Source of the DNA: Patescibacteria group bacterium
Lineage (GTDB): Bacteria; Patescibacteriota; Doudnabacteria; UBA920
Length of the DNA stretch: 46,534 nucleotides
Assembly (NCBI GenBank): GCA_038065175.1
Contig: JBBTRN010000018.1
Location: 1,445-47,978 of the forward strand
Direction of reading: 5' to 3'
The notes beneath the pieces are model-generated. The model was given only the letters and a program-made list of their open reading frames with translations. It was not told the origin of the DNA and made no database searches. How positions within the stretch are numbered: position 1 is the stretch's first letter; every line of letters starts with the position of its first letter. Positions 3,852-43,726 of this stretch are shown piece by piece. A program made the position numbers and the translations under genes.

Positions 3852-4478
3852 ATGAATATCCAATACTTCGGCTTATCGAGCTTTAAAATTACCACAAAAG
3901 AAGCTGTAATTATAACTGACCCCTTCCACAAAGATTCCGGGCTCACACCCCCCCGGGGAGCCGCGGATATTTTAATTTTGGCCGACAAAACCAACAAAAA
4001 ATATTCAGCGGTTTCGGGCATTTCGGGCACGCCGTTTATGATGGATACCCCGGGGGAATACGACATGAAGGGCATAACTGTAAACGGCATACCCCTTAAC
4101 CAGGAAGAAAAATATGTAAGCGTATTTTTAATTGAAAGCGAAGACATCCGGCTGCTTAACCTTACTCACATAAAAGACTGGAGTATGAAAGAAGAGGAAA
4201 TAGAAAATTTGGGTGAAATAGATATTTTGATTCTGCCAGTGGGGGGGAATACAGTGCTGTCAGCCTCCCAGGCCAGCAAAGTGGTAAACGAAATCGAGCC
4301 GAAGATTGTTATCCCCTGCCATTATAAAATGGCGGGACTGATTTTTGATTTAGACAACGCGGAAAAATTTATAAAAGAAATGGGCGGAAAAAAAGAGGAA
4401 ATGGAAAAATTGACTCTAAAGAAAAAAGATTTGCAGGAAGAGGAGTCAAAAGTAGTGGTATTAGAGCCGCTAAGATAA
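3852..4478 (+). CDS. MBL-fold hydrolase-like protein (metal ligands degenerate)
   Basis: IQYFGLSSFKI, IITDPF, PGEYD, DILILPVGG and IVIPCHY typical of the family; HxHxDH absent. Confidence 0.8.
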   Translation: MNIQYFGLSSFKITTKEAVIITDPFHKDSGLTPPRGAADILILADKTNKKYSAVSGISGTPFMMDTPGEYDMKGITVNGIPLNQEEKYVSVFLIESEDIRLLNLTHIKDWSMKEEEIENLGEIDILILPVGGNTVLSASQASKVVNEIEPKIVIPCHYKMAGLIFDLDNAEKFIKEMGGKKEEMEKLTLKKKDLQEEESKVVVLEPLR

Positions 4479-14872: not shown

Positions 14873-15130
14873 ATGTTTTATTGCTACATTCTAAAAAGCA
14901 AAAAGGATAACAATCTTTATATTGGTTCAACAACTGACTTAAAGAGAAGGTTTCTTGAACACAATTCTGGTTTAGTAAGGTCTACAAAATCACGATTGCC
15001 CCTTAAGCTAATCTATTATGAGGCGTATTCTGCTGAAGCAGACGCCCGCCATAGGGAACATAATTTAAAACTGCGTTCTAAGGCTTTAGCTCAGTTACTA
15101 AAACGGATTCCTAAATCCATGCAGGGATAG
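14873..15130 (+). CDS. GIY-YIG nuclease family protein
   Basis: FYCYILKS...LYIGSTTDLKRRFLEHN...LIYYEAY...ARHRE. Confidence 0.9.
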   Translation: MFYCYILKSKKDNNLYIGSTTDLKRRFLEHNSGLVRSTKSRLPLKLIYYEAYSAEADARHREHNLKLRSKALAQLLKRIPKSMQG

Positions 15131-20744: not shown

Positions 20745-21701
20745 TTAATTATTTGGGTGTTTTAAAATCCAATCCAAGGCCTTGGATATTTGATCAAATG
20801 AGCTAAAAATTAAGTATGAATGATGCAAGCTGTGTGGGCTCCTGTCTAGCTTAGGAAACAAACTTACATCAAAGTTAATTTTTTTTACGTTTTGGCTGCC
20901 AGCATTATTTAATTCCCCAAAAGAGGATATCAACCCTGCGCCAATGACTAAATTTTTACCACCCTCCTTAATAAATCCAAATTCCATACTATTCCACCAC
21001 AACCGTTCAGCCATAAATTGTTGACCCTCTTCCTTGCATTTCATAAAAACTTGACCAAACTTTTGAGCCAGTTCTTTTATTTCAGGATTTACAAGCATAG
21101 GTAAGTGGCCAAAGATATCATGAAAAATATCCGGTAGCGGAATAAAATCCAACTCTTTCATAGTTCGGATATAATTGGTTCGCATAATCCGTCTTTGCGA
21201 CAAAAAATGAAACCACGGCGCGTCTTCTGCATACTGTATGTTAGTAACTTCAGTTTTCCATTTCGCAACAGTAAACAGGCGTTCGTCCAACTCTTCTAAA
21301 TTAGGCAGTTTATTTGGGTTAATATTTAACAATTTTAGCCCTTCCCAAAACCACGGATGAACCTTACCCTTTAAACTCTTAAACTGACGCTCAAATAATT
21401 TTTGCCAAATAACATGAGCTTTAGGGTCAGTTATGGACAAAACTTTTAAATCACTAAATTTTGTACTGTAAAATTTACTGTCCAAAAGCTTAGCCAGCTG
21501 CCAGTCTTTTTCAGTTACTATATCTCCGGCATCGTGGGTGGTAAGCAGGACATTAATCTTGTTGCTTTTTAATGACCAGTCAGGATCATGACCCAAAGCC
21601 AAAATACTCGGCTTACAAGCAGCCACAAAATCCAATGCCTCCTGGTTATTGGAAAAAACGAACGTCTTAACAAGTTTATTATTTTGATTCTGCCATTGCA
21701 T
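20745..21701 (-). CDS. pterin-4a-carbinolamine dehydratase fused to phenylalanine 4-hydroxylase
   Basis: N-terminal PCD-like region (KTFVF, GHDPD, LTTHDAG); C-terminal PDIFHDIFGHLPML, MEFG and GAGLISSFGE with the His/His/Glu iron ligands. Confidence 0.85.
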   Translation of the reverse strand: MQWQNQNNKLVKTFVFSNNQEALDFVAACKPSILALGHDPDWSLKSNKINVLLTTHDAGDIVTEKDWQLAKLLDSKFYSTKFSDLKVLSITDPKAHVIWQKLFERQFKSLKGKVHPWFWEGLKLLNINPNKLPNLEELDERLFTVAKWKTEVTNIQYAEDAPWFHFLSQRRIMRTNYIRTMKELDFIPLPDIFHDIFGHLPMLVNPEIKELAQKFGQVFMKCKEEGQQFMAERLWWNSMEFGFIKEGGKNLVIGAGLISSFGELNNAGSQNVKKINFDVSLFPKLDRSPHSLHHSYLIFSSFDQISKALDWILKHPNN

Positions 21702-21729
21702 ATTTATTTATTCTTTAATAATTAAAAAT

Positions 21730-21761
21730 AAAAAAACCACCTGGCAGAGCCAAGCGGTTTT
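21730..21761 (-). terminator. attenuator terminator upstream of the hydroxylase
   Basis: minus strand AAAACCGCTTGGC-tct-GCCAGGTGGTTTTTTT. Confidence 0.75.
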
Positions 21762-21782
21762 GAAAATAAAAGCAAATTCAAA

Positions 21783-21848
21783 TTACCGCGAACTCTGCAA
21801 AGAGGGACGGTAAGTATACATATTAAATTTAACGGTAACTTTTTTCAT
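21783..21848 (-). CDS. attenuator leader peptide MKKVTVKFNMYTYRPSLQSSR
   Basis: 21 aa with F-x-x-Y-x-Y, lying between the promoter and alternative hairpins. Confidence 0.7.
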   Translation of the reverse strand: MKKVTVKFNMYTYRPSLQSSR

Positions 21849-21858
21849 ATCTGTTCGT

Positions 21859-21887
21859 ATAATATAGTAATAGACCTAATTTGTCAA
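21859..21887 (-). promoter_or_regulatory. promoter of the leader/hydroxylase transcript
   Basis: minus strand TTGACA-17 nt-TATTAT. Confidence 0.7.
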
Positions 21888-21923
21888 TTAGAACACAAAA
21901 AAGTTATAATCTTAGGACATGAG

Positions 21924-22198
21924 TCCCGTTAGAGAAACCCTATATATTATACTTATATTTTACAAAGCTTCAAAGACGGGAAGCAATATACAGGCTGTTG
22001 CAAAAATTTACGGAAGCGTTTCAAACAGCATAACAATAACCTAGTGCCATCAACCAAAGGTCGAGCTCCATTTGTTTTAATATATTATGAAGCGTGTTTA
22101 AATAAAGATGACGCTTTTGCCAGAGAACGCTATCTTAAAAGCGGGATGGGCAAACGCTATTTAAAAAATCGTTTGAAACGCTTCCTTTCTCTAACGGG
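21924..22198. mobile_element. CCC...GGG element carrying a GIY-YIG gene, inserted at the PBP start codon
   Basis: ATGAG-TCCCGTTAGAGA ... TCTCTAACGGG-ATGAA. Confidence 0.8.
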
Positions 22199-22202
22199 AT
22201 GA
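21942..22202 (+). CDS. GIY-YIG nuclease family protein (ATA in place of a start; possible pseudogene; not in the ORF track)
   Basis: YYTYILQSFKDGKQYTGCCKNLRKRFKQHN...LIYYEAC...AFARERYLKSG. Confidence 0.8.
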   Translation: MYYTYILQSFKDGKQYTGCCKNLRKRFKQHNNNLVPSTKGRAPFVLIYYEACLNKDDAFARERYLKSGMGKRYLKNRLKRFLSLTG

Positions 22203-25075
22203 AGATTTACAGCTATCGCATAAAAAAACGCTCTCACGGGTCAATTAAAACCTCGAAATTCAAATTCCCAAAATTACCCTTTCGGCTACCGTTTAAATTT
22301 AAGCGGCCGAAGAATGTTTGGACATTAATTTTTCGCGCGTTTGCCATGGGCATTTTATTTATTGCCCTGCTGTTTTTATATTATGCCAAAGACCTGCCGG
22401 ATCCCAACAAATTAATTGAAAGGGATGTGGCCGAAAACACCAAAATCTTTGACCGGGAAGGCAAATTGCTTTATGAAATACACGGCGAGGTAAAACGCAC
22501 ATTGATAGAACTTGACCAAATCCCTGAATACGCAAAACAAGCGTCAATTGCCATTGAAGATAAAGATTTTTACAACCACCATGGTTTGTATTTTAGGGGG
22601 ATTGCCCGTTCGCTCTTCCGCTATGTTATTAACCTTGGGCCCGAAGGGGGCGGAGGCAGTACTTTAACCCAACAATTTGTCAAAAACGCTATTTTAACCA
22701 ATAAAAAAACTTTTGGACGAAAAATTCCCGAGGCAATTTTAAGCTTAGAAATAGAAGCCAGGTTTTCCAAAGAAGAAATCCTAAAACTCTACTTAAACGA
22801 AATCCCCTACGGACGCAATGCCTACGGCATTGAAGCCGCGGCCTTTGGTTATTTTGGCAAATCTGCCAACGAGTTAAGTTTGGCCGAAAGCGCTTACCTG
22901 GCGGCATTACCCCAAGCGCCGACATTCTATAACCCCTTAGGCCCGAACCGAGCCGCTTTGGACGCAAGGAAAGACCGGGTCCTTGCGGCCATGCGAGAAC
23001 AGGGCTACATTAGTCCCGAACAGGAAAAAACCGCAACCGAAGAAAAAGTGGAATTTTTAAAAACCAAGACCGCCATTTCCGCGCCGCATTTTGTGTTGAT
23101 GGTGCAGGATTATTTAGCTAAAAAGTACGGAGAAAAAACCCTGGCTGAAGGCGGGCTTAGAGTTTATACTACCCTGGACTCCGGCCTGCAAAAAATTGCG
23201 GAAGAAGCGATTAAAGCCAGGGCAGAAACTAATTCCACGAAATACAATGCCCAAAACGCCAGCCTGGTTGCCGTTGACCCTAAAACCGGACAAATTTTAG
23301 CCCTGGTGGGAAGCAAAGATTACTTTGGGGAGAGTTTCCCTAAAGACTGCAGACCAGGAAAAACATGCCTGTTTGAGCCCAACGTGAACACCGCTCTTTC
23401 GCAGCTCCAACCCGGCTCAAGTTTTAAGCCTTATGTCTACGCAACGGCTTTCGGCAGGGATTATAAATTCGCCCCTGCCGCCATGCTTATTGATGTAGTT
23501 ACCAACTTCGGCACTTTTAACGGTAAAAACTATGCGCCTGAAAACTATAACAACAGAGAGCATGGCCCGGTTTCCATGCGTTCTGCATTGGCAGGCAGTT
23601 TGAACATCCCGGCGGTAAAAACCCTGGCCTTGGTTGGGGTGGACAAAGCAGTCCAGGTGGCGCGGGATTTAGGCATAACCAGCCCCATGGCTGACTGCGG
23701 CCTGTCTTTAGTTTTGGGAGGATGCGAAGTGAGATTAATAGACCACGTGGCCGCGTTTGGGGTTCTGGCCAACGGGGGCGTCAAAAACGAAAAAACCGCC
23801 ATATTAAAAGTCCTGGACAAGAACGGAAACACACTGGAAGAATTTGAGGAAAATCCAAAAGAAATTTTGGATCCCCAAGCCGTGTACCAACTTATAAGCA
23901 TAATGACGGACAACAACGCAAGAAGCTTTGTGTTTGGGGCCAACTCGCCTTTGACTTTGCCGGGCAGGGAAGTAGCGGCAAAAACCGGCACAACGCAAAA
24001 TTGGCACGACGGCTGGACTATGGGCTTTACGCCTTCTTTAGCCGCCGGAGTCTGGGCTGGGAATAACTGCGGGGGGGCGAACCCTAAATGCCTTATGAAA
24101 GAAGGGGCGGACGGCGTTTTTGTAGCAGCGCCTATCTGGAACCAATTCATGAAAGAAGCGCTAAAAGACAAACCTGCCGAAAGGTTCAAAGAACCCCCGG
24201 GGATTACGCGAATTATTGTTGACGCAACTTCCGGCAAACTCCCTACTGCCAACAGCCCCTCTACCAAAGAGGAGGTGTTTGCCGATTACAACCGGCCGCA
24301 AGATTATGACAATATTCACATTAGCTTGGCCTACGACTCTTTAACCAATCTACCCGCTGACCCTACAACCCCGCCTGAACGAATCACTTACAAAAACTTC
24401 ACGGTTTTCCAAAGCGAACAACCGCAAAACCCCGGCTGGGAAAATCCTGTAAGGGATTGGGCGATTAAGAACGGATACCTCTACCCTTCCAGGGTGCCTA
24501 CAAACCCAACCCAACCCGGATTTGGGGAAATTTCCGCCAGGATCACTAGCCCGTCAGACGGGCAACAAATTGAATCTTTGCCGTTTTTTGTGGGGGTTGA
24601 GGCTCAAGGCACGAACCCAATTGCCAGAGTGGATTTATTTATTGACGGGCTTTTTATTAAAAGTATGAATACCGCGCCCTACCGTTTTGAGGTCAATAAA
24701 ATCCTTTCCAATGGCCAGCATGTGGTGGCCGCAAAAGCATTGGACGCTGCCGGTAATATTGCGGATGCCAGTATAATAATTAGTTTCGGATCCCAGGGCG
24801 GTCTGGAATTAACCGACCCGGCGTATAACACATTAGCCCTATTCCCGATTACCCTGGCCGCGCAAAGCGCAAAAAAGTACGAATTAGTGAATTTTTATTA
24901 TTTGGAAGGTGAAATTGAAAAATTAATCGGGAAAGCGGAAAAGATAGAAAATGTGGGAGGGGGCTTCCGCTACAGCTTAGTTTGGGACAACGCGCCCGAT
25001 ATAAAAGAATTTTGGGTTTTTGCCAAAACTCCTGACGGGCAGGAGACAAAAAAAGTGAAGATAACAGTACCATAA
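22199..25075 (+). CDS. class A penicillin-binding protein (PBP1A family) with C-terminal Ig-like domain
   Basis: TM anchor, EDKDFYNH and GSTLTQQ transglycosylase motifs, GSSFK and KTGT transpeptidase motifs. Confidence 0.93.
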   Translation: MKIYSYRIKKRSHGSIKTSKFKFPKLPFRLPFKFKRPKNVWTLIFRAFAMGILFIALLFLYYAKDLPDPNKLIERDVAENTKIFDREGKLLYEIHGEVKRTLIELDQIPEYAKQASIAIEDKDFYNHHGLYFRGIARSLFRYVINLGPEGGGGSTLTQQFVKNAILTNKKTFGRKIPEAILSLEIEARFSKEEILKLYLNEIPYGRNAYGIEAAAFGYFGKSANELSLAESAYLAALPQAPTFYNPLGPNRAALDARKDRVLAAMREQGYISPEQEKTATEEKVEFLKTKTAISAPHFVLMVQDYLAKKYGEKTLAEGGLRVYTTLDSGLQKIAEEAIKARAETNSTKYNAQNASLVAVDPKTGQILALVGSKDYFGESFPKDCRPGKTCLFEPNVNTALSQLQPGSSFKPYVYATAFGRDYKFAPAAMLIDVVTNFGTFNGKNYAPENYNNREHGPVSMRSALAGSLNIPAVKTLALVGVDKAVQVARDLGITSPMADCGLSLVLGGCEVRLIDHVAAFGVLANGGVKNEKTAILKVLDKNGNTLEEFEENPKEILDPQAVYQLISIMTDNNARSFVFGANSPLTLPGREVAAKTGTTQNWHDGWTMGFTPSLAAGVWAGNNCGGANPKCLMKEGADGVFVAAPIWNQFMKEALKDKPAERFKEPPGITRIIVDATSGKLPTANSPSTKEEVFADYNRPQDYDNIHISLAYDSLTNLPADPTTPPERITYKNFTVFQSEQPQNPGWENPVRDWAIKNGYLYPSRVPTNPTQPGFGEISARITSPSDGQQIESLPFFVGVEAQGTNPIARVDLFIDGLFIKSMNTAPYRFEVNKILSNGQHVVAAKALDAAGNIADASIIISFGSQGGLELTDPAYNTLALFPITLAAQSAKKYELVNFYYLEGEIEKLIGKAEKIENVGGGFRYSLVWDNAPDIKEFWVFAKTPDGQETKKVKITVP

Positions 25076-25166
25076 AAATTACTAATGCCGAATTACTAAT
25101 GTCTAATCAATTTCTGTTGTTTAAATGCTTTAATTGGACATTTTGATATTAGTCATTGATTAGGAA
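25076..25166. repeat. empty inverted array of degenerate short repeats
   Basis: actaatg/tctaatc units on the left, cattttg/attagtc/gattagg units on the right; fills the intergenic gap. Confidence 0.55.
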
Positions 25167-25169
25167 TTG

Positions 25170-26402
25170 ATGAATTATTTAATCGTCCTCACAATCCTTC
25201 TCACTCCTGCCTACGCAATTAGGTTTAATATTTTTGGATTGTCCACAAATTTGCTAATGCTCTGGGTATTTTTTGTTTGGGTAATTTTTACATTTTACTT
25301 AACTGTCAACAATGAATGGGCCAAGTATATCGAGTTTAAATTATCACTGGATAAAAAAATTCTTGCCTTTATAAGCCTATTCTTTGCAGCCGCATTGATT
25401 AGCCTATTTTGGCAAGGCTTTAGCCAGGAAAAACTTGGGCAGTTTATTGTTCTGTTTATACAGCCAATTAGCTTGTTTATCATTGCGTCCTATACATGGT
25501 ATAAAAATCCTGATTCTAAACCCTTAATCCTTAATACTTGCTACTTGCTACTTGCGACCATGGGCCTCTTTGCCATCATCCAATACTTCACGCTTCTAGG
25601 CCTGCCGCCTGAATACTGGGGCAACAGCATGGAGCCGAAAAGGGTAATTGCGTTTTTTTCACATCCTAATTTTTATGCACTATTTATAGCTCCTTTATTG
25701 GCTTTTCTTATTCCTGACGCCTTTTCGGCAATTTCAAATTTCTCCGCCAAAGGCGGACAAATTTCAAAACTCTGGAAACCTATTTGCTGGACAATCGGGG
25801 CAATCGGGCTATTATTATCGCTATCTAGAGCGGGCTGGCTCGGGCTTGGGGTAGCTGGGCTAGTTTACTTATTTTTTGCTGCCGACAGAGCAATAAAAAA
25901 AATCGCCTCTGTTGTAGTAATTGTTATGGTTATTGTTATTGTTTCCGTCCCTAACCTCCGGTGGCGCTTTGTCCTACCCTTCTACGGCGAAAAGTCTGCT
26001 GTGTCTAGACTTAGCCTTTGGGAAACAGGGTGGAAAGGCGTAAAGGAGTCACCAATTTTGGGTCTGGGACTTACAGGCTTTTCAAATAATTGGAACAAAC
26101 TAAATACGGATCCAAATTTAGATACGCATAACTACCCGCATAATATATTTTTAAATTTATGGGTAGAAACGGGGATAATAGGACTTATGAGTCTTATAGG
26201 ACTAATAGGACCTTTAATTTATCGGGGACTTCGTTCTGTTTCCTCCTCCTTGAGGGGGGAGGGGCAGGGTGGGGGTGATGCGATAAAACTCGGCGTTGCG
26301 CTCTTCCTTATAGCTCTCCTGTCCCAAGGCCTCTTAGACAACCCTTACTTTAAAAACGATTTAGCTATGGTGTTTTGGATAGTGTTGTCTTTAGGGTTCT
26401 AA
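25170..26402 (+). CDS. O-antigen ligase (WaaL/Wzy_C) family membrane protein
   Basis: many TM helices, FSHPNFYA, LSLSRAGW and YPHNIFL. Confidence 0.88.
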   Translation: MNYLIVLTILLTPAYAIRFNIFGLSTNLLMLWVFFVWVIFTFYLTVNNEWAKYIEFKLSLDKKILAFISLFFAAALISLFWQGFSQEKLGQFIVLFIQPISLFIIASYTWYKNPDSKPLILNTCYLLLATMGLFAIIQYFTLLGLPPEYWGNSMEPKRVIAFFSHPNFYALFIAPLLAFLIPDAFSAISNFSAKGGQISKLWKPICWTIGAIGLLLSLSRAGWLGLGVAGLVYLFFAADRAIKKIASVVVIVMVIVIVSVPNLRWRFVLPFYGEKSAVSRLSLWETGWKGVKESPILGLGLTGFSNNWNKLNTDPNLDTHNYPHNIFLNLWVETGIIGLMSLIGLIGPLIYRGLRSVSSSLRGEGQGGGDAIKLGVALFLIALLSQGLLDNPYFKNDLAMVFWIVLSLGF

Positions 26403-26414
26403 CTATGTTAAAAT

Positions 26415-26687
26415 ATGGCAATGCAGACTAAACTGAAAAATCGAATAATTATTGACCCGAGGGTTATGGTCGGCAAACCCATAATAAAAGGCACGCGGAT
26501 TACCGTGGAGTTGATTTTGCGTTTGCTGGCGCAAGGCCAACCTGTGGAAGAAATCCTTGATAATTACCCGCACTTAAAAAAAGAAGATATTCGCGCGGCA
26601 ATCGAGTATGCGGCCGAACTTTTGGAAAGAGAAGCTGTCTACCCTTTAACAACCACTGCCTATGCCAAGGTTAAGACTGTTGCTTGA
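26415..26687 (+). CDS. DUF433 antitoxin
   Basis: DPRVMVGKPIIKGTRITVE...YPHLKKEDIRAA. Confidence 0.9.
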   Translation: MAMQTKLKNRIIIDPRVMVGKPIIKGTRITVELILRLLAQGQPVEEILDNYPHLKKEDIRAAIEYAAELLEREAVYPLTTTAYAKVKTVA

Positions 26688-27015
26688 CGAAAATATTGGG
26701 AAGACGACAGCTGAAATACTTCGAAAAGATCGAAATGATGTTGTGAGCGTATCAGAAGACTACCGAGGCCAAGCAGATGAAGCTATTCTAAAAATCGCTG
26801 TCAAAAGCAAACGAATTATTGTTACGCTTGATAAAGATTTCGGCACGCTAGTGCATTTACACTCCCGCAAACATACTGGGGTTATTTTATTGCGCTTGGA
26901 TGACGAATCTCCAAAAAATATTTATAAAATCTTGAAATCTATACTAAAACAGCCATCAAAAAACCTAAAAGGCAAATTCATTGTCGCAACAGAAACCAAA
27001 ATCAGGCTGAAATAA
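26662..27015 (+). CDS. DUF5615/PIN-like toxin
   Basis: LLLDENI, DEAIL, IVTLDKDFG and GVILLR; paired with DUF433. Confidence 0.88.
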   Translation: MPRLRLLLDENIGKTTAEILRKDRNDVVSVSEDYRGQADEAILKIAVKSKRIIVTLDKDFGTLVHLHSRKHTGVILLRLDDESPKNIYKILKSILKQPSKNLKGKFIVATETKIRLK

Positions 27016-27075
27016 AAAACAAGGGCGGAACGACTTTCATCGCCCGCCCTTGAGGGCATTAACCTTTGTTGAAGG

Positions 27076-27663
27076 CTATCTCTGAGCTCGGTAGTTAATT
27101 TTTCTGAGCTGGATTCTCCCCCCGCAGCCAGGGCAGTAGTGGATTCGCCGCCGAATCGTCCTAATTTGGGAGTTAGCATTGTCAGACCAAAAAGTCTCGT
27201 GGCGCTCCCCATTGAAGCACCTAATCCCGACCTCACCCAGACTAGTAGTCTGCGCGGACGACTGCTCCGGAAAATAACGAAGCACTTCAACCTCAAGGCA
27301 AAACTTTTGTACCTTCTTTTCCTTTTTAATGATCGCTAAAGCGCGTTTGCGCGCCCTTCGTTCATATTGCCTATTAAGCTCCTGCTGAGTGATCTGTTCA
27401 CTAAATAACAATTTGGCGCCCACTAAGCTAGCAGGGCTGAGTGCATTGCAATTAACCACCAAGTAGCGTCCACTTCCCTCAAAGCCTGCGGCCTGAACTA
27501 CCTCCCCCAGATCACCCTTCCTAAGCTTCCCTGAATTGTCAGGGGCCATAACCTTAAAACACCCTGCGGGCAGATCACGCGCTCCATTTTTCGAAAGAAG
27601 TCTAACCTGGCCTCCTTCTGCTGCTTCTGCTATTTTTATCTCAATTCCAGAAACCCTTTTCAT
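27076..27663 (-). CDS. hypothetical protein with C-terminal Zn-ribbon-like motif
   Basis: SD AAGGAGGAG; C-x5-H ... CPGCGG. Confidence 0.6.
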   Translation of the reverse strand: MKRVSGIEIKIAEAAEGGQVRLLSKNGARDLPAGCFKVMAPDNSGKLRKGDLGEVVQAAGFEGSGRYLVVNCNALSPASLVGAKLLFSEQITQQELNRQYERRARKRALAIIKKEKKVQKFCLEVEVLRYFPEQSSAQTTSLGEVGIRCFNGERHETFWSDNANSQIRTIRRRIHYCPGCGGRIQLRKINYRAQR

Positions 27664-27815
27664 TTAACTCCTCCTTCTTTTGCGTATTCATACCCCGCAG
27701 GGTGTTTTGGTTTTAACCAAGAAGAATACCAGAAATACAAAAATTGACAATTGTAGTCATCGTATGATATAGTATATTTAGCCTTATTTAAGGCTAAATA
27801 TTTATTTTATTTATA

Positions 27816-27839
27816 TTTTGTCGGGTAAGGTTGACACAA
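27816..27839 (+). promoter_or_regulatory. operator candidate, second copy
   Basis: TTTTGTCG-N7-TTGACACAA with arms identical to 14023-14046. Confidence 0.55.
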
Positions 27840-27847
27840 TCTATTAA

Positions 27848-27877
27848 CTGGATTCCGGCTCGTAGGCCGGAATGACA
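27848..27877. repeat. REP-like palindrome (half element)
   Basis: CTGGATTCCGGC-tcgtag-GCCGGAATGACA. Confidence 0.6.
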
Positions 27878-27883
27878 AATGAA

Positions 27884-28702
27884 ATGGATTATAAAATAGC
27901 TGAAAAACTTAATAACCTAGGACTCCAACCCAATGAATCTAAAATTTATTTGGCTTTATTGGAATTGGGTAAAGGAACAGTGACTCAAATAAGCCAGGCG
28001 GCGCAGTTAAACCGTACAACGGGCTATGATGTTCTAGAAAGACTGGCCCTGTATGGACTGGCAAGCCGAGCGGGCAGTGGCATAAACAAAAAAATGTACG
28101 CGGCCGAACCTCCAATTAGGCTTAAACAATATCTGGAAAATAAAAAAACCCAAGCTGAACAGCGATTGGCTAGGGCAGATGAAACTCTTTCCGATCTATT
28201 AGGGATTTACAAAAAAGACAATAAACCGGTCATTAAATTTTTTGAAGGCAAAGAAGGTATTAAAAATATTTATTGGCATACGCTGGAAAGCAAAAGTCCG
28301 ATTTATTCCATTTTGGATTTAAGTATATACCTGCCTGACTACGACCAATTCGGTAAAGAATATATTAGGGAGCGTAGCCAAAGAGGGATAAAAGAAAAAG
28401 CTTTGGTAATAAAAAATCAGACAGCCATAGACTACTACGAAGCCGTTTACAAACATAACAAACATTTCCAAAAGTTTACTGAATACCGCTGGCTAAATAA
28501 GCAATTCCCCTTCATCCCGGCCGCGGAAGTTAATATATATGATGATACGGTTATGGGTGTACTGGCCAAATCCGGCGAAAACGCGGCGTTTGAAATTATT
28601 AACCCTTCCTTTGCCAATTCTTTAAAAATGATTTTTGAACTTGCTTGGGACAGCACCGGCAATAAAATAATTCCGTTATCGTCTTTGCGAGTACTACAAT
28701 AA
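27884..28702 (+). CDS. TrmB-family HTH transcriptional regulator
   Basis: LGLQPNESKIYLALLELG...NRTTGYDVLERL, FFEGKEG and EVNIYDD; start at 27872 or 27884. Confidence 0.85.
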   Translation: MDYKIAEKLNNLGLQPNESKIYLALLELGKGTVTQISQAAQLNRTTGYDVLERLALYGLASRAGSGINKKMYAAEPPIRLKQYLENKKTQAEQRLARADETLSDLLGIYKKDNKPVIKFFEGKEGIKNIYWHTLESKSPIYSILDLSIYLPDYDQFGKEYIRERSQRGIKEKALVIKNQTAIDYYEAVYKHNKHFQKFTEYRWLNKQFPFIPAAEVNIYDDTVMGVLAKSGENAAFEIINPSFANSLKMIFELAWDSTGNKIIPLSSLRVLQ

Positions 28703-28736
28703 TTCACGATCGTGAATTATTGTAGTACTAAATTTT

Positions 28737-29609
28737 ATGACCATACCAACAAAAAAACTAAACAACGGATTTGAAATGCCGGTGTTTGGTTTGGGGACAT
28801 CGGGAATGGGGAATAATGTGCCCTTAATTAGTCTGTTCAAAGATTCTTCCAAGGATGTTAATGCAATCAAAACCGCCATTGACTTAGGCATTACTCACAT
28901 TGACACCGCGGAAATTTACGCTAATGGTGAGGCGGAAAAACTAGTGGGAAAGGCCATAAAAGATTCCGAGAGAGAAAGGTTGTTTGTAGTTTCCAAAGCT
29001 TATCTTTGGCATTTAACTTACAGTAAGATTAAAAAGGCTGTGCTAGGGAGCCTAAAAAGATTAGGTACAAATTATTTAGACCTTTATTTAATGCACCGCT
29101 ATCCGGGAGATGACAAATTACAAGAATGCGTTAAAGCAATGGATGAATTAATAGAAGAAGGTTTAATAAAACATTTTGGCGTTAGCAACTTTAACTTACA
29201 GCATACGAAAGACACTATGTTGTTAAGTAAACATCCCCTCAGAGCAAACCAAGTCCATTACAATTTAATTTTTCGGGAACCCGAAACAACCGGACTTTTG
29301 GAATACTGCCAACGGAACAATATAATGTTAATTGCCTGGCGACCGGTAGAGAAAGGCGAGTTGGCAAATCCAAAAACAGAAATTTTAAGTGCTCTGGGTG
29401 TGAAATATCAAAAAAGTCCGGCACAAATCGCTATTAATTGGCTCATCTCTCAACCAAATGTCGTCACGCTTTCTAAAACCAGCAATATTACTCACCTTAA
29501 GGACAATTTAGGCGCTGTTGGCTGGCAGATGGGACAAGCCGACATTGAATTCTTGAGAAAAAATTTTCCCTCCAAGCAAAAAATATCTAACAGGCTTCCG
29601 TTGGAATAA
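28737..29609 (+). CDS. aldo/keto reductase
   Basis: MPVFGLGT, IDTAEIY, SLKRLGTNYLDLYLMH and GVSNF. Confidence 0.92.
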   Translation: MTIPTKKLNNGFEMPVFGLGTSGMGNNVPLISLFKDSSKDVNAIKTAIDLGITHIDTAEIYANGEAEKLVGKAIKDSERERLFVVSKAYLWHLTYSKIKKAVLGSLKRLGTNYLDLYLMHRYPGDDKLQECVKAMDELIEEGLIKHFGVSNFNLQHTKDTMLLSKHPLRANQVHYNLIFREPETTGLLEYCQRNNIMLIAWRPVEKGELANPKTEILSALGVKYQKSPAQIAINWLISQPNVVTLSKTSNITHLKDNLGAVGWQMGQADIEFLRKNFPSKQKISNRLPLE

Positions 29610-29611
29610 TT

Positions 29612-29639
29612 TAAAATCCCGAATTAACCCGGGATTTTA
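29612..29639. terminator. bidirectional terminator
   Basis: TAAAATCCCG-aattaacc-CGGGATTTTA between convergent genes. Confidence 0.75.
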
Positions 29640-29640
29640 T

Positions 29641-30111
29641 TTATCTTTTTAGCCGTATAACCACTTTTCGGTAAGGCTCGCGGTCTATGCTCACGCTTTC
29701 GGCTTCTGGAAAATTTTCCTGGACATAAGCGTGTACGAGCCGGCGCTCAAAGTTAGGCATGGGTTCTAAAGCCACGGCTCGGCCGGTTTTTTTTATGTGC
29801 TCCACGGCAGCGCGCGCGGTTTCCTTTAAAAACCATTCGCGCTTCATTTTATAATCATCCACATCCAGGATAAACCAAAACGGCTCCTTTAAGGCATTTT
29901 GAGCTATCTGCCCTAATACAATCTGCAAGGCCTGTAAATGCGCCCCCTGCCGGCCAATTAATAAGTAGGAGTCGGCACCGGCAAAAATATTAAACACCAA
30001 GCCTTTGGTAATACTTTCCTCGTACGACACCTCCGCGTTTGAAAAACCCATTTTTACTAGGGTTTCTTTAACAAGGTTAAGAACAATTTCTATTTTGGAA
30101 TAATCGGTCAT
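29641..30111 (-). CDS. jag: Jag/EloR-type KH+R3H RNA-binding protein
   Basis: LLIGRQGAHLQALQ, LDVDDY and MPNFERRLVH; downstream of yidC. Confidence 0.88.
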   Translation of the reverse strand: MTDYSKIEIVLNLVKETLVKMGFSNAEVSYEESITKGLVFNIFAGADSYLLIGRQGAHLQALQIVLGQIAQNALKEPFWFILDVDDYKMKREWFLKETARAAVEHIKKTGRAVALEPMPNFERRLVHAYVQENFPEAESVSIDREPYRKVVIRLKR

Positions 30112-30175
30112 GTTCTAGTGATTAGTGCTAAGTGACTAGTGACTAGAAAAATCTAATCACTAAACACTAATCACT
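30112..30175. repeat. empty inverted array of TAGTGAY 7-mers
   Basis: tagtgattagtgctaagtgactagtgactag / ctaatcactaaacactaatcact between the yidC stop and jag start. Confidence 0.75.
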
Positions 30176-30881
30176 GACCACTTGCCTGCGCTCGCTGGCG
30201 GTTAATAATATACTGCTGGCCTATGCCAAAAAGGGTGGTTACCACCCAATAAAGAGGCAAGCCCGCGGGAAAATTCCAGGCGATTACCACGCTTACAACC
30301 GGCAGCATATACGTCATTTGCATAGACATAATTTTCTGCGTTGAGTCTGTCGGGCCGCTACCGCCTTTCGGCGCCATTAATTTAGACTGCCAAAACTGGG
30401 TTAAGCCTGCCAATACGGCCAGGACATGGCTGGGTTTGGACAAATCTAATAAACCCAGGAACATTGGACTTAAATGCTCCGGGCGCTTAATAAAACTATA
30501 AAGCCCGGTTAGTTCCCCGGTTAAAGCCTGGGTAAAAACAAAATACAAAGAAATTAAAATTGGCAGCTGGATGAGTAAAGGCAGGCAGGAAGAAAAAGGA
30601 TTTACTTTATGCTCTTTGTACAAGTCCATCATTGCTTTTGCCTGCGCCTGCTGGTCATTTTTATATTTCTCCCTAATCTCGTTCATCTTCGGCTGTATGG
30701 CCGTCATGGCCGCCTGGCTCTTGAGGGATTTGTGGAAAGAGGGGGCGAGGGCCAAGCGGATAAGCATGGTTAAAAGGATTATAACCACGCCAATATCCGG
30801 GATAATGTTATAGAACAAAATTAAAACATTCAACAACACCGGCACTAAAATAAAATTTTTGGAAAAAGGATTTAGGATCAT
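30171..30881 (-). CDS. yidC: membrane protein insertase
   Basis: IQPKMNEIREKY, SCLPLLIQLPI and PAGLPLYWVV. Confidence 0.93.
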   Translation of the reverse strand: MILNPFSKNFILVPVLLNVLILFYNIIPDIGVVIILLTMLIRLALAPSFHKSLKSQAAMTAIQPKMNEIREKYKNDQQAQAKAMMDLYKEHKVNPFSSCLPLLIQLPILISLYFVFTQALTGELTGLYSFIKRPEHLSPMFLGLLDLSKPSHVLAVLAGLTQFWQSKLMAPKGGSGPTDSTQKIMSMQMTYMLPVVSVVIAWNFPAGLPLYWVVTTLFGIGQQYIINRQRAQASGQ

Positions 30882-30914
30882 AAATAAATAACTGTTTTTT
30901 CTCCCAAAGACTCT

Positions 30915-31169
30915 TTAGTCACTTTGGGCCACATCAATCGAAGGTTCAACCCAAGGATTACATCTTAATATTCTTTTTAACCCCAACCGCAAACCGCGCA
31001 GCACGCCAAAACTTGCCACCGCGTTTTTTGTATACTCGCTGCAAGAAGGATAGTGTCGGCAAAACCCGTAAGGGTAATTTGCCCTAAACACCCCATGGTC
31101 AGGGGAAATTGTAATTTGATAAAAAGCTATTAACTTAATAATTATTTTTTTTGCGTGAAAATTATTCAT
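30915..31169 (-). CDS. yidD: membrane protein insertion efficiency factor
   Basis: YQITISP, CRHYPSCSEY and RILRCNPW. Confidence 0.92.
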   Translation of the reverse strand: MNNFHAKKIIIKLIAFYQITISPDHGVFRANYPYGFCRHYPSCSEYTKNAVASFGVLRGLRLGLKRILRCNPWVEPSIDVAQSD

Positions 31170-31503
31170 GCTTATAAAGACCGGCTGTTATTAACAATTT
31201 TTTTAAGCTTAGTACCATGTACTTTTCCTGCTCCATCGCCACCTTAGGCTTTAATACCAAAATATAATCCCCGGACGCGAGATTTGTCATATTCAATCTT
31301 ACAAATTCCCTTATTATCCGCTTTAAGCGGTTTCTTTTGACAGCCCTTTTAGAAACCTTGGTGGAAACTACAGCCGTAAACCTTAAGGAGCCTCCCGAAT
31401 TTAAAAATTTCAAATTAAAAAAGGGGCTAAAAAAACTCCGCCCCCGCGCAAACACCTTTTTAATATCCCGGTCTTTGGCGAGACGGTTTTTTTTATTAAG
31501 CAT
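31162..31503 (-). CDS. rnpA: ribonuclease P protein component
   Basis: MLNKKNRL and KVSKRAVKRNRLKR. Confidence 0.92.
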   Translation of the reverse strand: MLNKKNRLAKDRDIKKVFARGRSFFSPFFNLKFLNSGGSLRFTAVVSTKVSKRAVKRNRLKRIIREFVRLNMTNLASGDYILVLKPKVAMEQEKYMVLSLKKLLITAGLYKHE

Positions 31504-31579
31504 AAATTTAACAAAATCTGGAATCAACAAGGCTGGCTTGTACCGGTTCAACCATTATTTCGTTTTCCGGTTTAGGAGT

Positions 31580-31714
31580 TTAGACTGTGAGTTTCTTGCG
31601 CCCCTTTTGCCTGCGTCTTCCCAAAACTGCGCGCCCCGTCCTGGTTTGCATGCGTTTAAAAAATCCATGGCGGGTTTTTCGTTTTTTTACTTTTGGCTGA
31701 TATGTTCTTTTCAT
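31580..31714 (-). CDS. rpmH: 50S ribosomal protein L34 (not in the ORF track)
   Basis: [44 protein letters not shown]. Confidence 0.95.
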
Positions 31715-31828
31715 CCTGTTAGAAATTAAAATAATTATTGATAAAAATTGTGTATGCGTTCCTTAATCCCTTTTTACCCTTTAAAACAAACAGTGGGAAT
31801 ATGATCCAAAATTTGCTTTCTAACGGGA
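31715..31828. mobile_element. empty CCC...GGG element inserted at the rpmH start codon
   Basis: minus strand ATGAA-TCCCGTTAGAAA ... TTTCTAACAGG-ATGAA. Confidence 0.8.
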
Positions 31829-31841
31829 TTCATACCGGCTA

Positions 31842-31870
31842 ATTATAATAAAAAAACTGGCCGGGGTCAA
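31842..31870 (-). promoter_or_regulatory. rpmH operon promoter
   Basis: minus strand TTGACC-17 nt-TATAAT. Confidence 0.75.
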
Positions 31871-31899
31871 CCCTGCTAATAATTTTTTATTTGGCCACA

Positions 31900-32012
31900 C
31901 CTTTTCCACATTTAATCAACAAGGCTAACCAAACTCCTTTTAATCATGGGTACTTATACCTAGTTTACATGTTGATAACCCCTCTGGTAGAATACCTCCA
32001 CTGATACACAGA
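31900..32012. promoter_or_regulatory. DnaA-box cluster upstream of dnaA
   Basis: TTTTCCACA 31902, TAATCAACA 31913, TGTTGATAA 31970 and TGATACACA 32002 (near matches to TTATNCACA). Confidence 0.55.
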
Positions 32013-32096
32013 TGGTTGCTAATGGCGCTAATTTTCTGTTGAGGATGCCAGGGTATTATTTGTGTTATTGATGTTTAATTAATGCATCTGTGGCCT

Positions 32097-33455
32097 ATGA
32101 ATAACCAACAACTCTGGCAAGCCATACTTGGAAGCCTGGAAGTTTCATTGAGCAAAGCCAATTTTAATACTTGGTTTAAAAATACGAGCATTGTTGAAAG
32201 AGGTGCTAATTTTATAGTACTTAATGTGCCCAGTGCATTTAACCGGGACTGGATAGCAAACAAGTACCACCAGGAAATGCTTAAAAGCCTAAAAACGCTC
32301 ACCCCCGAAATCCGCGAAATAAAGTATCGGATAGGGGGCTCAAAAGACCCACAAACCCCACCATCCCAACCCTACACCAACCGTGAAATAAAAAGCTTGG
32401 AAAATTCCAGGTCTAAGACCTCCCCAAGCAACCACACCTCAACCCTAAACCCCAAGTATGTTTTTGAAACTTTCATTGTGGGTAAAAATAACGAGCTAGC
32501 TCATGCCGCGGCCTCCGCAGTGGTCAAAAGCCCTGGAGGACAATACAACCCCTTGTTTATTTACGGCGGGGTTGGTCTGGGAAAAACCCATCTTATGCAG
32601 GCGGTTGGACACAAAATTTTAAACTCCTTAGGCACAAACAAATTATTGTATGTTACCTGTGAGAAGTTCACCAACGACTACATTGAATCCCTTAGGGAAA
32701 AACGAATGGATGATTTTAAAAAAAACTACCGCGACTTGGGTGCGCTCCTGGTTGACGATATCCAATTTTTAGCCGGCAAAGAAAGTACCCAGGAAGAATT
32801 CTTCCACACCTTTAACGAGTTAAGGGATAAGGGAAGGCAGATAATTATCACCTCTGACCGCCCACCAAAGGAAATACCCGCAATTGAGCAAAGGCTTATT
32901 TCCAGGTTCGAAGGCGGAATGGTTGCCGATATCCAAGCCCCAGATTTAGAAACCAGAATGGCGATTCTAAAAAATAAAATGGAGAAGCGCCCCTCTCAAA
33001 TTTCCGAAGAGATACTTTTTTACATTGCGGAAAATATACAAAGTAATGTAAGGGAGCTTGAGGGTGCCCTAAACCGACTTGTTGTTTACCAACAAATGGA
33101 AAACAAAGGTTTGGTGCTCGAACAGGCAAAAAACATCTTAACCAGCCTTATTTCCTCAAAAAAACGGATGGTGTCGCCAAAAAAAATCGCCGATGTGGTT
33201 GCGGAATTTTACAATATCCAATTCGAGGATCTAATAAAACAATCGAGGAAAAAAGAGTTTGTAAAACCCAGGCAGATTGCAATGTATTTGATACGAAAAG
33301 AGTTGGAAAATTCATTTCCTTCAATTGGGGATTTTTTCGGGGGCCGGGACCACACTACTGTAATGCACGCGGTTGATAAAATCAATAGTATGGTTTCAAA
33401 CAAAATACAATTCAAACAAGAGGTTGATTTAATCCTTAATAAGTTGTTAATATAA
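32097..33455 (+). CDS. dnaA: chromosomal replication initiator
   Basis: YNPLFIYGGVGLGKTHL, LLVDDIQF, NVRELEGAL and GRDHTTV. Confidence 0.97.
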   Translation: MNNQQLWQAILGSLEVSLSKANFNTWFKNTSIVERGANFIVLNVPSAFNRDWIANKYHQEMLKSLKTLTPEIREIKYRIGGSKDPQTPPSQPYTNREIKSLENSRSKTSPSNHTSTLNPKYVFETFIVGKNNELAHAAASAVVKSPGGQYNPLFIYGGVGLGKTHLMQAVGHKILNSLGTNKLLYVTCEKFTNDYIESLREKRMDDFKKNYRDLGALLVDDIQFLAGKESTQEEFFHTFNELRDKGRQIIITSDRPPKEIPAIEQRLISRFEGGMVADIQAPDLETRMAILKNKMEKRPSQISEEILFYIAENIQSNVRELEGALNRLVVYQQMENKGLVLEQAKNILTSLISSKKRMVSPKKIADVVAEFYNIQFEDLIKQSRKKEFVKPRQIAMYLIRKELENSFPSIGDFFGGRDHTTVMHAVDKINSMVSNKIQFKQEVDLILNKLLI

Positions 33456-42559: not shown

Positions 42560-43726
42560 ATGCCAGACAGCGATTCCACCAAACAATTTTTTAACCAGCT
42601 TAACAATGCCAAACGGATCTTAATTGCGCTCCCGGCAGGGTTAAGCGCGGACGCAGCCAGCGCAGGCAGCGCTTTGGCAATGTTTTTAAAGCGCCTTAAT
42701 AAGGAAGTGGAGGTTCTTGCTTCTGAGAATTACGAAGACAGCCTTCCATTTTTGCCAAAAACTGGACTCTTAAAGCTGGTTTTAAATTCGTCCCAAAGCC
42801 TGGCCGTGGTTGTTGATACCACAAAAAAAGCCTTGGAGGAAATAAGCTACGCGCAGGAAGAAGGGCGGGCGAAAATTTTTCTAAAGGGCAAAACCGAAAT
42901 TTTTACCCCCGAAGAAGTGTCTTTTGAAACTGTAAGGAATACCCCTTACGACCTGGCGATTATTTTAGGCGCGCAGGATTTAAATGATTTAGGCACGGTT
43001 TTTGCGCAAAACCCCGATTTGTTTTATGAGACTCCAAAAATAAATATAGACAACAATCCAGGCAATAAGCTTTTTGGCGCAATAAACTTAATTGACATAA
43101 ACGCGGCATCGCTTTCCGAGATTATTACGACGATGCTCCAGGAATACGAGACCGACCTTTTTAATGAAGATATTGCCACCTGCCTTTTAGCCGGCATAAT
43201 GGCAAAAACCAACAGCTTCCAGCATGCGCAGGTTAGCCCTAAGAGTTTTATTCAGGCCGGGCTACTTGTGGAGAAAGGCGCGCGCCAGCAGGAAATTGTC
43301 CGCGCGCTTTTTAAAACCCGGTCCTTGCCGCTTTTGAAGTTATGGGGCAGAAGCCTGGCCAGGCTTAAGGATTTTGGCGATTGGACCTTGTCGCAGTTGA
43401 ATTTTTCTGACTTTGAGAAAGCAGAGGCCGACGAGACTTACCTGCCGCAGGTATTAAAGGATTTGCTCGAAAATTTGTCCGGCAAACTTGCGGTGGGGAT
43501 TGTGAGCCAGACAGACCCTTCGGGCGGCTTAAAGTTGGTTATAGCTTTCAAGAGAGGTGTTGATGTCCCCGGGCTATTCGGTGAATTTGGGGCAGGCCGG
43601 ATCTTGCCTTTAGCCGTTCCCGGCGCTTACGATGCATGGCAATTTAACATCGATAGTTTTTCTTTGGAAGAAGTTGAGGCCAAATTGGTTTCGTTAATGC
43701 CCAAACTTTTGCCCAAGCTTTCTTAA
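42560..43726 (+). CDS. DHH/NrnA-like phosphoesterase homolog (catalytic motifs degenerate)
   Basis: INIDNNPGN (for IDHH), FGAINLID, IATCLLAGI, TNSFQ and LKLWGR. Confidence 0.75.
   Translation: MPDSDSTKQFFNQLNNAKRILIALPAGLSADAASAGSALAMFLKRLNKEVEVLASENYEDSLPFLPKTGLLKLVLNSSQSLAVVVDTTKKALEEISYAQEEGRAKIFLKGKTEIFTPEEVSFETVRNTPYDLAIILGAQDLNDLGTVFAQNPDLFYETPKINIDNNPGNKLFGAINLIDINAASLSEIITTMLQEYETDLFNEDIATCLLAGIMAKTNSFQHAQVSPKSFIQAGLLVEKGARQQEIVRALFKTRSLPLLKLWGRSLARLKDFGDWTLSQLNFSDFEKAEADETYLPQVLKDLLENLSGKLAVGIVSQTDPSGGLKLVIAFKRGVDVPGLFGEFGAGRILPLAVPGAYDAWQFNIDSFSLEEVEAKLVSLMPKLLPKLS

Follow-up and report, generated by a model that had tools for sequence, protein, structure and literature searches.

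A hairpin-ended element at the rpmH start codon of a Patescibacteria group bacterium and its relation to a family of small GIY-YIG nuclease-carrying insertions

Introduction

The Ssn nucleases are single-domain GIY-YIG enzymes that cut single-stranded DNA beside their own hairpin repeats, which frame the nuclease gene (Chenal et al. 2025, PMC11893778), and the main text of that paper notes that the motif–gene–motif layout resembles an insertion sequence. Here, we describe a 115-nt element with inverted-repeat ends that lies at the start codon of rpmH, the gene for ribosomal protein L34, in a 46,534-nt stretch of the genome of a Patescibacteria group bacterium (contig JBBTRN010000018.1 of assembly GCA_038065175.1; this stretch is called the window below). 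That the element arrived as an insertion of DNA is very probable. We further consider it likely that it is a cargo-less, non-autonomous copy of a hairpin-ended insertion family found across the phylum, and that it now forms a passive 5' leader of rpmH. Full-size members of the family carry a GIY-YIG nuclease gene between their arms.

As far as the main text of PMC11893778 describes the Ssn system and its NTS/SRM motif, the two have much in common: a single-domain GIY-YIG protein of about 90 aa (86–87 aa in the cargo copies here), a gene framed on both sides by its own inverted-repeat motif, a motif scattered in many copies around genes and different nuclease/motif pairs in different lineages. 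One GIY-YIG paralogue of the genome studied here has GTCATTGCGAGG-type repeats on both sides, similar to the NTS core of Ssn. The flanks of Ssn genes, however, are self-contained hairpins of 20–50 nt, whereas each flank here is a single arm that pairs with the other across the gene, and what lies in the loop of this long-range palindrome varies: the nuclease gene, about 90 nt of filler, a tRNA gene or just 8–16 nt. Also unlike the published description are the 4-bp flank duplications, the insertion on start codons, the stop codon borrowed from the flank, the ATGA overlap and the phylum; the main text of PMC11893778 makes no mention of start codons, duplication, Patescibacteria or Candidate Phyla. 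Among publications on GIY-YIG enzymes in connection with mobile elements, start codons, target duplication and Patescibacteria, start-codon insertion and the restart design were not found. Judged by sequence organization, the element thus appears closest to Ssn-type systems, while its start-codon habit, its duplication and its borrowed stop appear new relative to the literature found.

Several other classes of small elements invite comparison. [quoted passage not shown] It differs from them in that only the ends of about 12 nt are common to the copies, in a duplication of the type TNNA rather than TA and in its tie to start codons; no DDE transposase partner was seen, the piggyBac/IS1380 type not having been searched for. 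Rickettsia palindromic elements are palindromic mini-insertions that survive in protein-coding genes by staying in frame, as does a 25-codon copy in a dihydroorotase-like open reading frame (ORF) here; most copies here, in contrast, lie at start codons, and a nuclease-carrying form exists. IS200/IS605 and REP/RAYT elements depend on HUH tyrosine transposases, have a subterminal hairpin at each end and leave no target duplication. The present family shares with them a small nuclease that would attack single-stranded hairpins and short non-autonomous palindromic derivatives, a likeness to such elements that the main text of PMC11893778 also discusses, but has a GIY-YIG enzyme and a 4-bp duplication in place of an HUH enzyme, a hairpin per end and no duplication. 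Finally, IStrons, as outlined in PMC4227781, and group I introns likewise render an insertion harmless to the host gene and carry GIY-YIG cargo. At 115–277 nt the elements described here are too small for a ribozyme and have no Rfam match, and their harmlessness would come from start rebuilding and stop/restart signals instead of splicing.

The element at rpmH

Read on the minus strand, the locus is built as the original prediction described it: TTGACC, 17 nt, TATAAT, 8 nt, ATGAA, an arm, about 90 nt of other sequence (the interior measures 91 nt), a second arm and the L34 start. The promoter hexamers together match the consensus at 11 of 12 positions in a promoter scan, and TAGCCGGT makes up the 8 nt between the -10 box and the left ATG; TATAAT stands at the same 8-nt distance in the window's other copy, at the gene of a penicillin-binding protein (PBP), as had been pointed out. 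The element itself (115 nt, window 31714-31828) is flanked by a direct repeat of TGAA. The ends and the target hold as first described, with three refinements: the arms pair at 11 of 12 positions, CAGG replacing the CGGG of the perfect arm, the repeat is TGAA, and the element ends with the A of the second ATG, which stands outside the duplication. The left ATG opens the predicted 19-codon upstream ORF (uORF), MNPVRKQILDHIPTVCFKG, whose MNPVR is dictated by ATGAA plus the left arm and whose stop lies 57 nt ahead of the rpmH ATG. The gene order jag-yidC-yidD-rnpA-rpmH, divergent from dnaA-dnaN, is that of a replication-origin neighbourhood.

Comparison with 19 relatives shows that none carries paired arms upstream of rpmH (0/19), so the region is not a conserved ordinary 5' untranslated region. 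Their leaders cannot be aligned with that of the host genome, and DNA similarity of the loci resumes exactly at the ATG. A TTGAC-N16-18-TAnnnT promoter is recognizable in 16 of the 19, and TATAATTAGCC is common to the host genome and several relatives, which identifies the rpmH promoter as native; TAGCC after the -10 box is likewise common to several relatives and takes the native sequence to about 5–6 nt past the box. A lone TCTAACAGG in three relatives is part of a conserved block by GTTATCAACATG, farther upstream and outside the leader. An ordinary untranslated region with a chance inverted repeat has the shortness of the arms in its favour and nothing else; the relatives without paired arms, together with the family counts given below and their reversed controls of zero, already refute it, and we give it practically no credence. 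A conserved ribosomal-protein leader or riboswitch was also considered and rejected, as neither sequence nor structure is conserved in the 19 leaders and no Rfam family matches; a scan of window 21000-33000 against Rfam gave four sub-threshold irrelevant matches only and no intron family.

Another possibility is a domesticated regulatory leader, in which stem and uORF would control L34 synthesis through translation-dependent unmasking of the AUG or through feedback by L34. The arms can indeed pair in the predicted fold of the leader, the stem reaches up to the rpmH AUG, the 5' arm lies within the uORF, and arms of other copies are intact at orthologous positions across genera in relatives. This nevertheless seems improbable to us: the element is missing from the rpmH loci of all 19 relatives, the fold is not more stable than those of shuffled sequences (z -1.25), the same ends stand at dozens of unrelated genes, and the apparent arm conservation is partly ascertainment, since the exact-pattern search described below detects intact-arm copies only.

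The rpmH leader seems to be a tolerant landing place. Two relatives, G010 (L002) and G004 (L005), have rpmH leaders of 112–121 nt with other repeat-like inserts, and in G017 (L012) a different palindromic insert lies just upstream of the rpmH promoter.

The element family and its target duplications

The 11-nt arm CCCGTTAGAAA, with at most one mismatch, occurs six times in the window against 1.58 expected, and none of 100 shuffles reached six. The host genome (G000 in the coordinates below; 1.03 Mb, 60 contigs) contains 14 paired copies of 71–276 nt with the ends [T/C]CCCGTTAGA ... TCTAACGGG[A/G] in inverted order. Exact matches to the pattern CCCGTTAGA-N60-100-TCTAACGGG were present in 12 of 41 genomes (G000 and 40 relatives) and in 44 of 401 genomes sampled evenly across the phylum, with up to 26 copies per genome, and the reversed pattern, serving as control, gave zero in every genome of both searches. 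These counts, the common layout and the common ends bear out the proposal that the rpmH element and the PBP copy belong to one family, the former without cargo: the left arm of the rpmH element is exact, its right arm has one mismatch, its repeat is a TNNA word and its last base starts the host ATG.

The interiors are another matter. Only one of 78 pairs of copies in the host genome is similar, namely the RmuC and Vut_1 copies, which are identical at 90 of 94 positions while standing at unrelated genes and thereby point to recent movement; the rest compare at shuffle level. For the rpmH interior, the best local score was 16 against a shuffle maximum of 15, and its score against the PBP element was 11 (shuffle 95% level, 15). 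As in MITEs, terminal inverted repeats, target-site duplication and several copies are present; homology along the full length is absent, and the full-size partners with the same ends (8 in 8 genomes) encode a GIY-YIG nuclease, not a known transposase.

The direct repeats across copies read TGAA, TGGA, TCAA, TAAA, TGTA or TTAA. That these TNNA words are target duplications follows from three observations. Removal of the guaB copy of the host genome together with one TTAA restores ...EALTFDDVLLVP, and the downstream ORF is IMPDH according to Pfam; guaB of G004 begins MIKIERALTFDDVLLVPN. The PBP orthologue of a relative of the same genus, G001, has an empty site that reads TATAAT-8 nt-ATGAAAG. 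Lastly, a strain variant present in two metagenome runs has ATGAA for ATGAG at 21923, which makes the PBP duplication perfect. A low-depth contig that skips 244 nt between the PBP-copy arms has only 21 nt on one side and is not relied on.

All four metagenome runs also contain a high-depth contig (depth 50–160) with arms only 16 nt apart (window 31726-31817 region), which is a mini-hairpin form from another locus or organism and not an empty site. Mini-hairpins of 30–50 nt likewise occur in the host genome (C9:1537-1566, C10:16934-16983) and in G028. Of the three arm pairs in the window, the one at 42878/43768 was taken as chance, since its arms are in the wrong relative order and part of it is coding. 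Reading GTTAGAA/TTCTAAC as integron attC-like was dropped, since attC has its arms in the opposite order. The ends may also be likened to piggyBac/IS1380 ends (CCC...TAGAAA, TTAA).

Placement on start codons

Seven of the 14 copies in the host genome lie exactly on firm start codons, those of rpmH, the PBP gene (Transgly/Transpeptidase), RmuC, the Vut_1 transporter, LigA, L9 and a 190-aa ORF; at the L9 copy, the Pfam N-domain (residues 1–45) starts at the junction Met. Two more junctions are uncertain, as the ORFs they open are short (51 and 89 aa) and lack Pfam support. In 11 relatives, the junction forms ATG, GTG or TTG in 22 of 36 fetched copies, counting junctions that open an ORF of at least 100 aa or one running to the end of the fetched flank. 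A Pfam domain begins within the first 10–20 residues or so in 14 of these 22 (L9, GreA, Hpf, IMPDH, UvrD, Mur ligase, HIT and others), and in 3 more (LysM, DUF3105, cyclophilin) only at residues 56–100. As a crude null, sites at which A+TG opens an ORF of at least 100 aa make up 1.5% of all sites of the duplicated kinds and 5.9% of TGAA sites. The hosts are mostly housekeeping genes (L34, L9, LigA, PBP, GreA, Hpf, IMPDH, UvrD, Mur ligase), and some recur: L9 in G000 and G012, guaB in G000 and G004, and a gene starting MKI[ST]NLNK in G036 and G004. The strong tie to starts of mostly housekeeping genes that had been proposed is thus upheld (7–9/14 in the host genome, 22/36 in relatives, 5/8 among cargo copies); it may reflect the proposed targeting or survivorship.

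Without any targeting, insertion would occur at any T-N-N-A, and the survivors would be those that rebuild a start (A followed by TGRA, plus the terminal A/G of the element), keep a reading frame or hit neutral spacer; the position at rpmH would then be survivorship in a genome that is about 90% coding. The duplications are indeed varied TNNA words, and the copy with C...G ends at LigA turned ATG into GTG, which shows that the ATG belonged to the target site. Moreover, the intragenic survivors are exactly those with a usable frame, and 3 copies in G000 and about 14 in relatives are not at starts. On the other side, start copies amount to 50–64%, against about 15% of the non-coding plus start TGRA sites that are start TGRA sites (a rough, uncomputed estimate), two copies with a TCAA duplication follow the ATG in the other register, which hints at starts and not at a fixed DNA word, and 7 of the 8 copies with a nuclease stand in sense orientation at a start or just ahead of it. 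We regard insertion without targeting as possible, with our doubts somewhat the stronger.

Two intragenic copies of the host genome are instructive. The guaB copy (G000:C31:7602-7699; 98 nt, TTAA duplication) lies after codon 8, and its internal ATG is in frame with the rest of IMPDH (MAKKISILNKKNQASFLTG-LTFDDV...). A 71-nt copy plus TGAA (G000:C30:11240-11310; L125, ORF 174-1454) adds exactly 25 in-frame codons to a 426-aa dihydroorotase-like ORF, inside a conserved motif at ...FQ-M/NPPLR, and leaves the frame intact; the host encodes its own MNPPLR with ATGAACCCCCCGTTAAGA, which is similar to ATGAA followed by an element arm. Element sequence also appears to be translated at a gene starting MDKI[VI]SLCKRRGFVFPGS, which carries a start copy in G001 (L081), G003 (L079) and G017 (L078), thus in two genera. 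Its left duplication is progressively decayed (TGGA, TGAA, TTTA; L078, L079, L081), and from an ATG inside the element 15 codons are added in frame, an extension whose protein sequence is conserved between the two genera (MSDKQKKIDNEISNG, MSDQQKKIDNEISNG). The product, which we take to resemble glycyl-tRNA synthetase, has no Pfam match.

The right arm provides signals in each frame. In ...TTTCTAACGGGATGAA, frame 1 has TAA 4 nt before the ATG, frame 2 has TGA overlapping the ATG and frame 3 is open into the host gene (..ISNG-M..). In four cargo-less copies of relatives, a uORF spans the whole element and stops at the right-arm TAA.

These observations bear on the original prediction that the RNA allows initiation through excision or hairpin bypass, neither of which any of the data show. 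If the arms paired in the transcript and the element were cut out by an RNase III-type or a cut-and-ligate process, a leaderless or near-leaderless mRNA would be restored. Such an intervening sequence would explain harmless insertions at start codons and within genes; the arms can pair in the predicted fold, some TTTA...TGAA flanks pair only if G-U is allowed on the sense strand, the dihydroorotase-like gene keeps its frame around a copy in a conserved motif, and units with related stems interrupt tRNA-like genes (see below). Yet the element sequence looks translated, in the 15-codon extension as in the in-frame ATG of guaB, each of the three frames of the right arm has a signal to stop or read through, the outer tRNA genes that the units interrupt look decayed (a missing stem strand, an 8-nt anticodon loop), as expected of dead and not of spliced genes, no Rfam family matches and the direct 4-bp repeats are a mark of DNA insertion. 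The element is probably not an RNA intron, and we think there is little chance that its removal from RNA accounts for the rpmH locus.

The nuclease-carrying form

When the same ends were sought 180–400 nt apart, matches were obtained in 12 genomes among the 146 searched in the order. The loci fetched yielded eight complete elements of 270–277 nt in eight genomes, including the window PBP copy, each of which encodes a single-domain GIY-YIG protein of 86–87 aa between the two arms. In all eight, the C-terminus of the nuclease (...KRFLSLTG) is encoded by the right arm and the flank provides the stop with its first 3 nt (TGA where it reads TGAA, TAA where it reads TAAA). A host ATG stands at the junction in 5 of 8, so that nuclease stop and host start overlap as ATGA, and 10–12 nt downstream of it in 2 of 8. 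At two loci (L094, L102), the left ATG, which comes from the host, shares its frame with the nuclease (MNPVRDNY-MHYVY..., MSPVRANQ-MFYVY...); the MNPVR and MSPVR uORFs are remnants of such a host-ATG/nuclease fusion. Arm variants ACCGTTGCAGAC (G004) and GGCCGTTAGAGAC (G017) keep the cargo design, and the ATGA overlap is kept in G004.

The PBP copy of the window has the layout TTGTCA-18-TATAAT-8 nt-ATGAG, TCCCGTTAGAGAAA ... TTTCTCTAACGGGA, then TGAAG. Its GIY-YIG frame of 86 codons matches PF01541 (E 8e-14, residues 4–70). The copy is one base shorter than the other full-size copies, the nuclease starts with ATA instead of ATG, and its frame differs from that of the left ATG at 21919. Because of the ATA start and the frame, this nuclease is probably inactive.

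A nuclease homologue of at least 60% identity was found in 5 of the 12 genomes positive for the exact pattern and in 1 of the 29 negative ones, in a set of kin genomes that is no independent test; the lone negative genome with such a homologue holds a cargo element, and the 11 genomes without a nuclease match at 1e-8 are all pattern-negative. The group I intron endonuclease model TIGR01453 stays below its cut-off on this protein (34 bits vs 56). The nearest solved relative of the nuclease is UPF0213 BH0048 (1zg2, E 5e-7); UPF0213 is, we assume, a CDD subfamily other than Ssn (cd10448).

Ten GIY-YIG paralogues are present within the 1 Mb of the host genome, several of them framed by other inverted-repeat families (CCCAGTAATACAAC..., GCTTGTCATTGCGAGGAG...). 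Two tandem GIY-YIG copies lie in the D-loop of a tRNA-Gln gene, each after a duplicate of the first 20 nt of the tRNA and a ACCCGCCTGAGGCGGGT hairpin.

Mechanism and significance

The host genome shows a strong leaderless signature: in 806 long ORFs, -10-like boxes peak 6 nt before the first ATG (45 vs a background of about 9), and Shine-Dalgarno words are barely enriched. Since five copies in this genome lie 6–8 nt after a -10 box, many host genes were probably leaderless, as the G001 PBP gene is. At rpmH, the element would have entered the DNA at the TGAA that overlaps the start codon (A/TGAA/AAG, slashes enclosing the duplicated word); this word was duplicated, and the ATG was rebuilt with the element's last base. 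Transcription from the native rpmH promoter would now include the element in a leader of about 125 nt, with the old start codon kept 8 nt after the -10 box as the start of the 19-codon uORF. The rebuilt AUG would operate in an AU-rich, Shine-Dalgarno-poor context, which is normal for this genome. L34 might be translated by fresh initiation at this AUG, and ribosomes on the uORF may melt the arm–arm stem; we put this forward with reserve, as one possible route only.

As to the mover, the family's GIY-YIG nuclease is a candidate because Ssn nucleases cut single-stranded DNA beside their own hairpin repeats; by this analogy, it would recognize the arm–arm hairpin in single-stranded DNA. Whether it mobilizes the element appears to us an evenly balanced question. 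In the full-size copies, the host promoter and initiation codon would drive the nuclease, the borrowed stop would end it, and the ATGA stop/start overlap would return ribosomes to the host gene. Reinitiation, which had been suggested for the family, is therefore plausible in architecture for cargo copies. The overlap type does not apply at rpmH, where the element lacks a gene and the uORF stops 57 nt upstream.

Taken to its end, this reasoning gives a tentative picture, one we would not yet bet on, of a selfish element of about 275 nt that may be moved by an Ssn-like GIY-YIG nuclease, aim at start codons, borrow the promoter, start and stop of its host and hand translation back through ATGA. 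Under it, rpmH, rplI, ligA and the PBP gene would carry the element at no cost, the cargo-less, tRNA-carrying and mini-hairpin forms would be derivatives, and the tRNA forms would replace a broken tRNA gene. To our knowledge, about 275 nt would make it the smallest gene-carrying mobile element.

Several points weigh against our interpretation. In all 16 promoter-bearing relatives, the -10 box and the rpmH ATG are 24–121 nt apart, whereas the distance in the host genome would be 8 nt if the element were taken out; a plain insertion on the start codon thus has to be combined with loss of the old leader, of which there is no trace, and this leader was either lost in the lineage of the host genome or replaced by the insertion event. 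The four metagenome runs, in which contigs are broken at the element, yielded no contig with an empty rpmH site. A direct repeat is missing from several copies, where one side reads TTTA or TTCA instead, and copy interiors are unrelated except in one pair, unlike in ordinary MITE families. As regards the nuclease, the sole same-arm nuclease copy of the host genome is the one that lacks an ATG and is out of frame, and a homologue at or above 60% identity is missing from 7 of the 12 pattern-positive genomes. We know of no strand-joining activity of a GIY-YIG nuclease and of no transposition shown to be carried out by one.

If the picture is correct, it shows concretely how Ssn-type mini-nucleases can live selfishly, by inserting with duplication, in a phylum in which they have not been discussed, and start rebuilding combined with stop/restart signals in every frame is an unreported route to harmless insertion, beside the known ones of splicing and gene avoidance. 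Annotation of candidate phyla would be affected as well, because starts, 5' leaders, N-terminal extensions, in-frame inserts and broken or nested tRNA genes can be mis-called near elements, and assemblies break at them. The elements would also offer a natural test bed for leaderless or reinitiation-type translation where Shine-Dalgarno sequences are barely used. Should the element prove to be only a decayed repeat, the copy at rpmH is just leader junk of an ordinary kind.

Table 1. Coordinates of the rpmH locus, its sister copy and related loci (window positions unless a contig of G000 is given)
Feature	Position	Strand	Remark
-35 hexamer TTGACC, native rpmH promoter	31870-31865	-	promoter scan
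-10 hexamer TATAAT, rpmH promoter	31847-31842	-	spacer to -35, 17 nt
ATGAA, left ATG and left TGAA duplication copy (31832-31829)	31833-31829	-	8 nt past -10, leaderless-type position
Left terminal arm TCCCGTTAGAAA	31828-31817	-	exact family arm
Element interior, 91 nt, AT-rich	31816-31726	-	unlike other interiors or nuclease gene
Right terminal arm TTTCTAACAGGA	31725-31714	-	one mismatch to perfect arm; final A is A of rpmH ATG
Right TGAA duplication copy	31713-31710	-	TG of rpmH ATG and AA of codon 2
rpmH (L34), intact, 44 aa	31580-31714	-	ATG 31714-31712; 61-86% identity to L34 of 19 relatives
19-codon uORF and stop	31774-31833	-	opened by left ATG
PBP sister copy with cargo, 276 nt	21924-22199	+	at PBP start codon; GIY-YIG ORF 21936-22202, stop TGA in flank
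GIY-YIG paralogues	G000:C29:9852-10097; C45:14647-14889; C45:17195-17410; C15:3354-4048; window 14873-15130		
tRNA-carrying units, G000	C2:18081-18470; C6:20875-20975; C9:21006-21109; C23:12685-12758 region; C43:26013-26089 region; C44:3939-4046 and 4177-4278; C48:1903-2052; C51:6286-6436; C34:6894-7052		

Units nested in tRNA genes and other observations

Intact tRNA genes in the host genome also occur inside units bounded by CCCCG...CGGGG stems, which vary in sequence and keep their pairing (CCCCGTTAAAT, CCCCGCACCATT, CCCCGTCACCC). These units lie within another tRNA-like gene, in most cases a decayed one, whose D-loop, anticodon loop or T-arm they split, and in several of them the inner and outer anticodon types are the same (Val-CAC in Val-CAC, Thr in Thr, Pro in Pro). 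Such a unit looks like an insertion that brings a replacement for the gene it broke. A splice rule for the outer tRNA was tried on 12 units with 49 boundary combinations each and abandoned: aragorn accepts the outer tRNA in 3 of the 12, with many boundaries. The genome, rated 98% complete, has 33 tRNA genes by covariance search and 32 by aragorn, and neither method detected genes for Phe, Tyr, His, Cys or Asn tRNAs in the assembly. Many of the tRNA nests are near contig ends, and the five undetected tRNAs may be unassembled or interrupted.

The spacer between rpmH and dnaA contains two further motifs, GTTATCAACATGTAAA (window 31964-31979, minus strand) and TGTGGAAAAGGTGTGG (31895-31910, minus strand), which are conserved in most of the 19 relatives and look like DnaA-box-type origin or promoter motifs. 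In relatives, GTTATCAACATGTAAA is preceded by TTCTAACAGG, which alone resembles one arm of the element.

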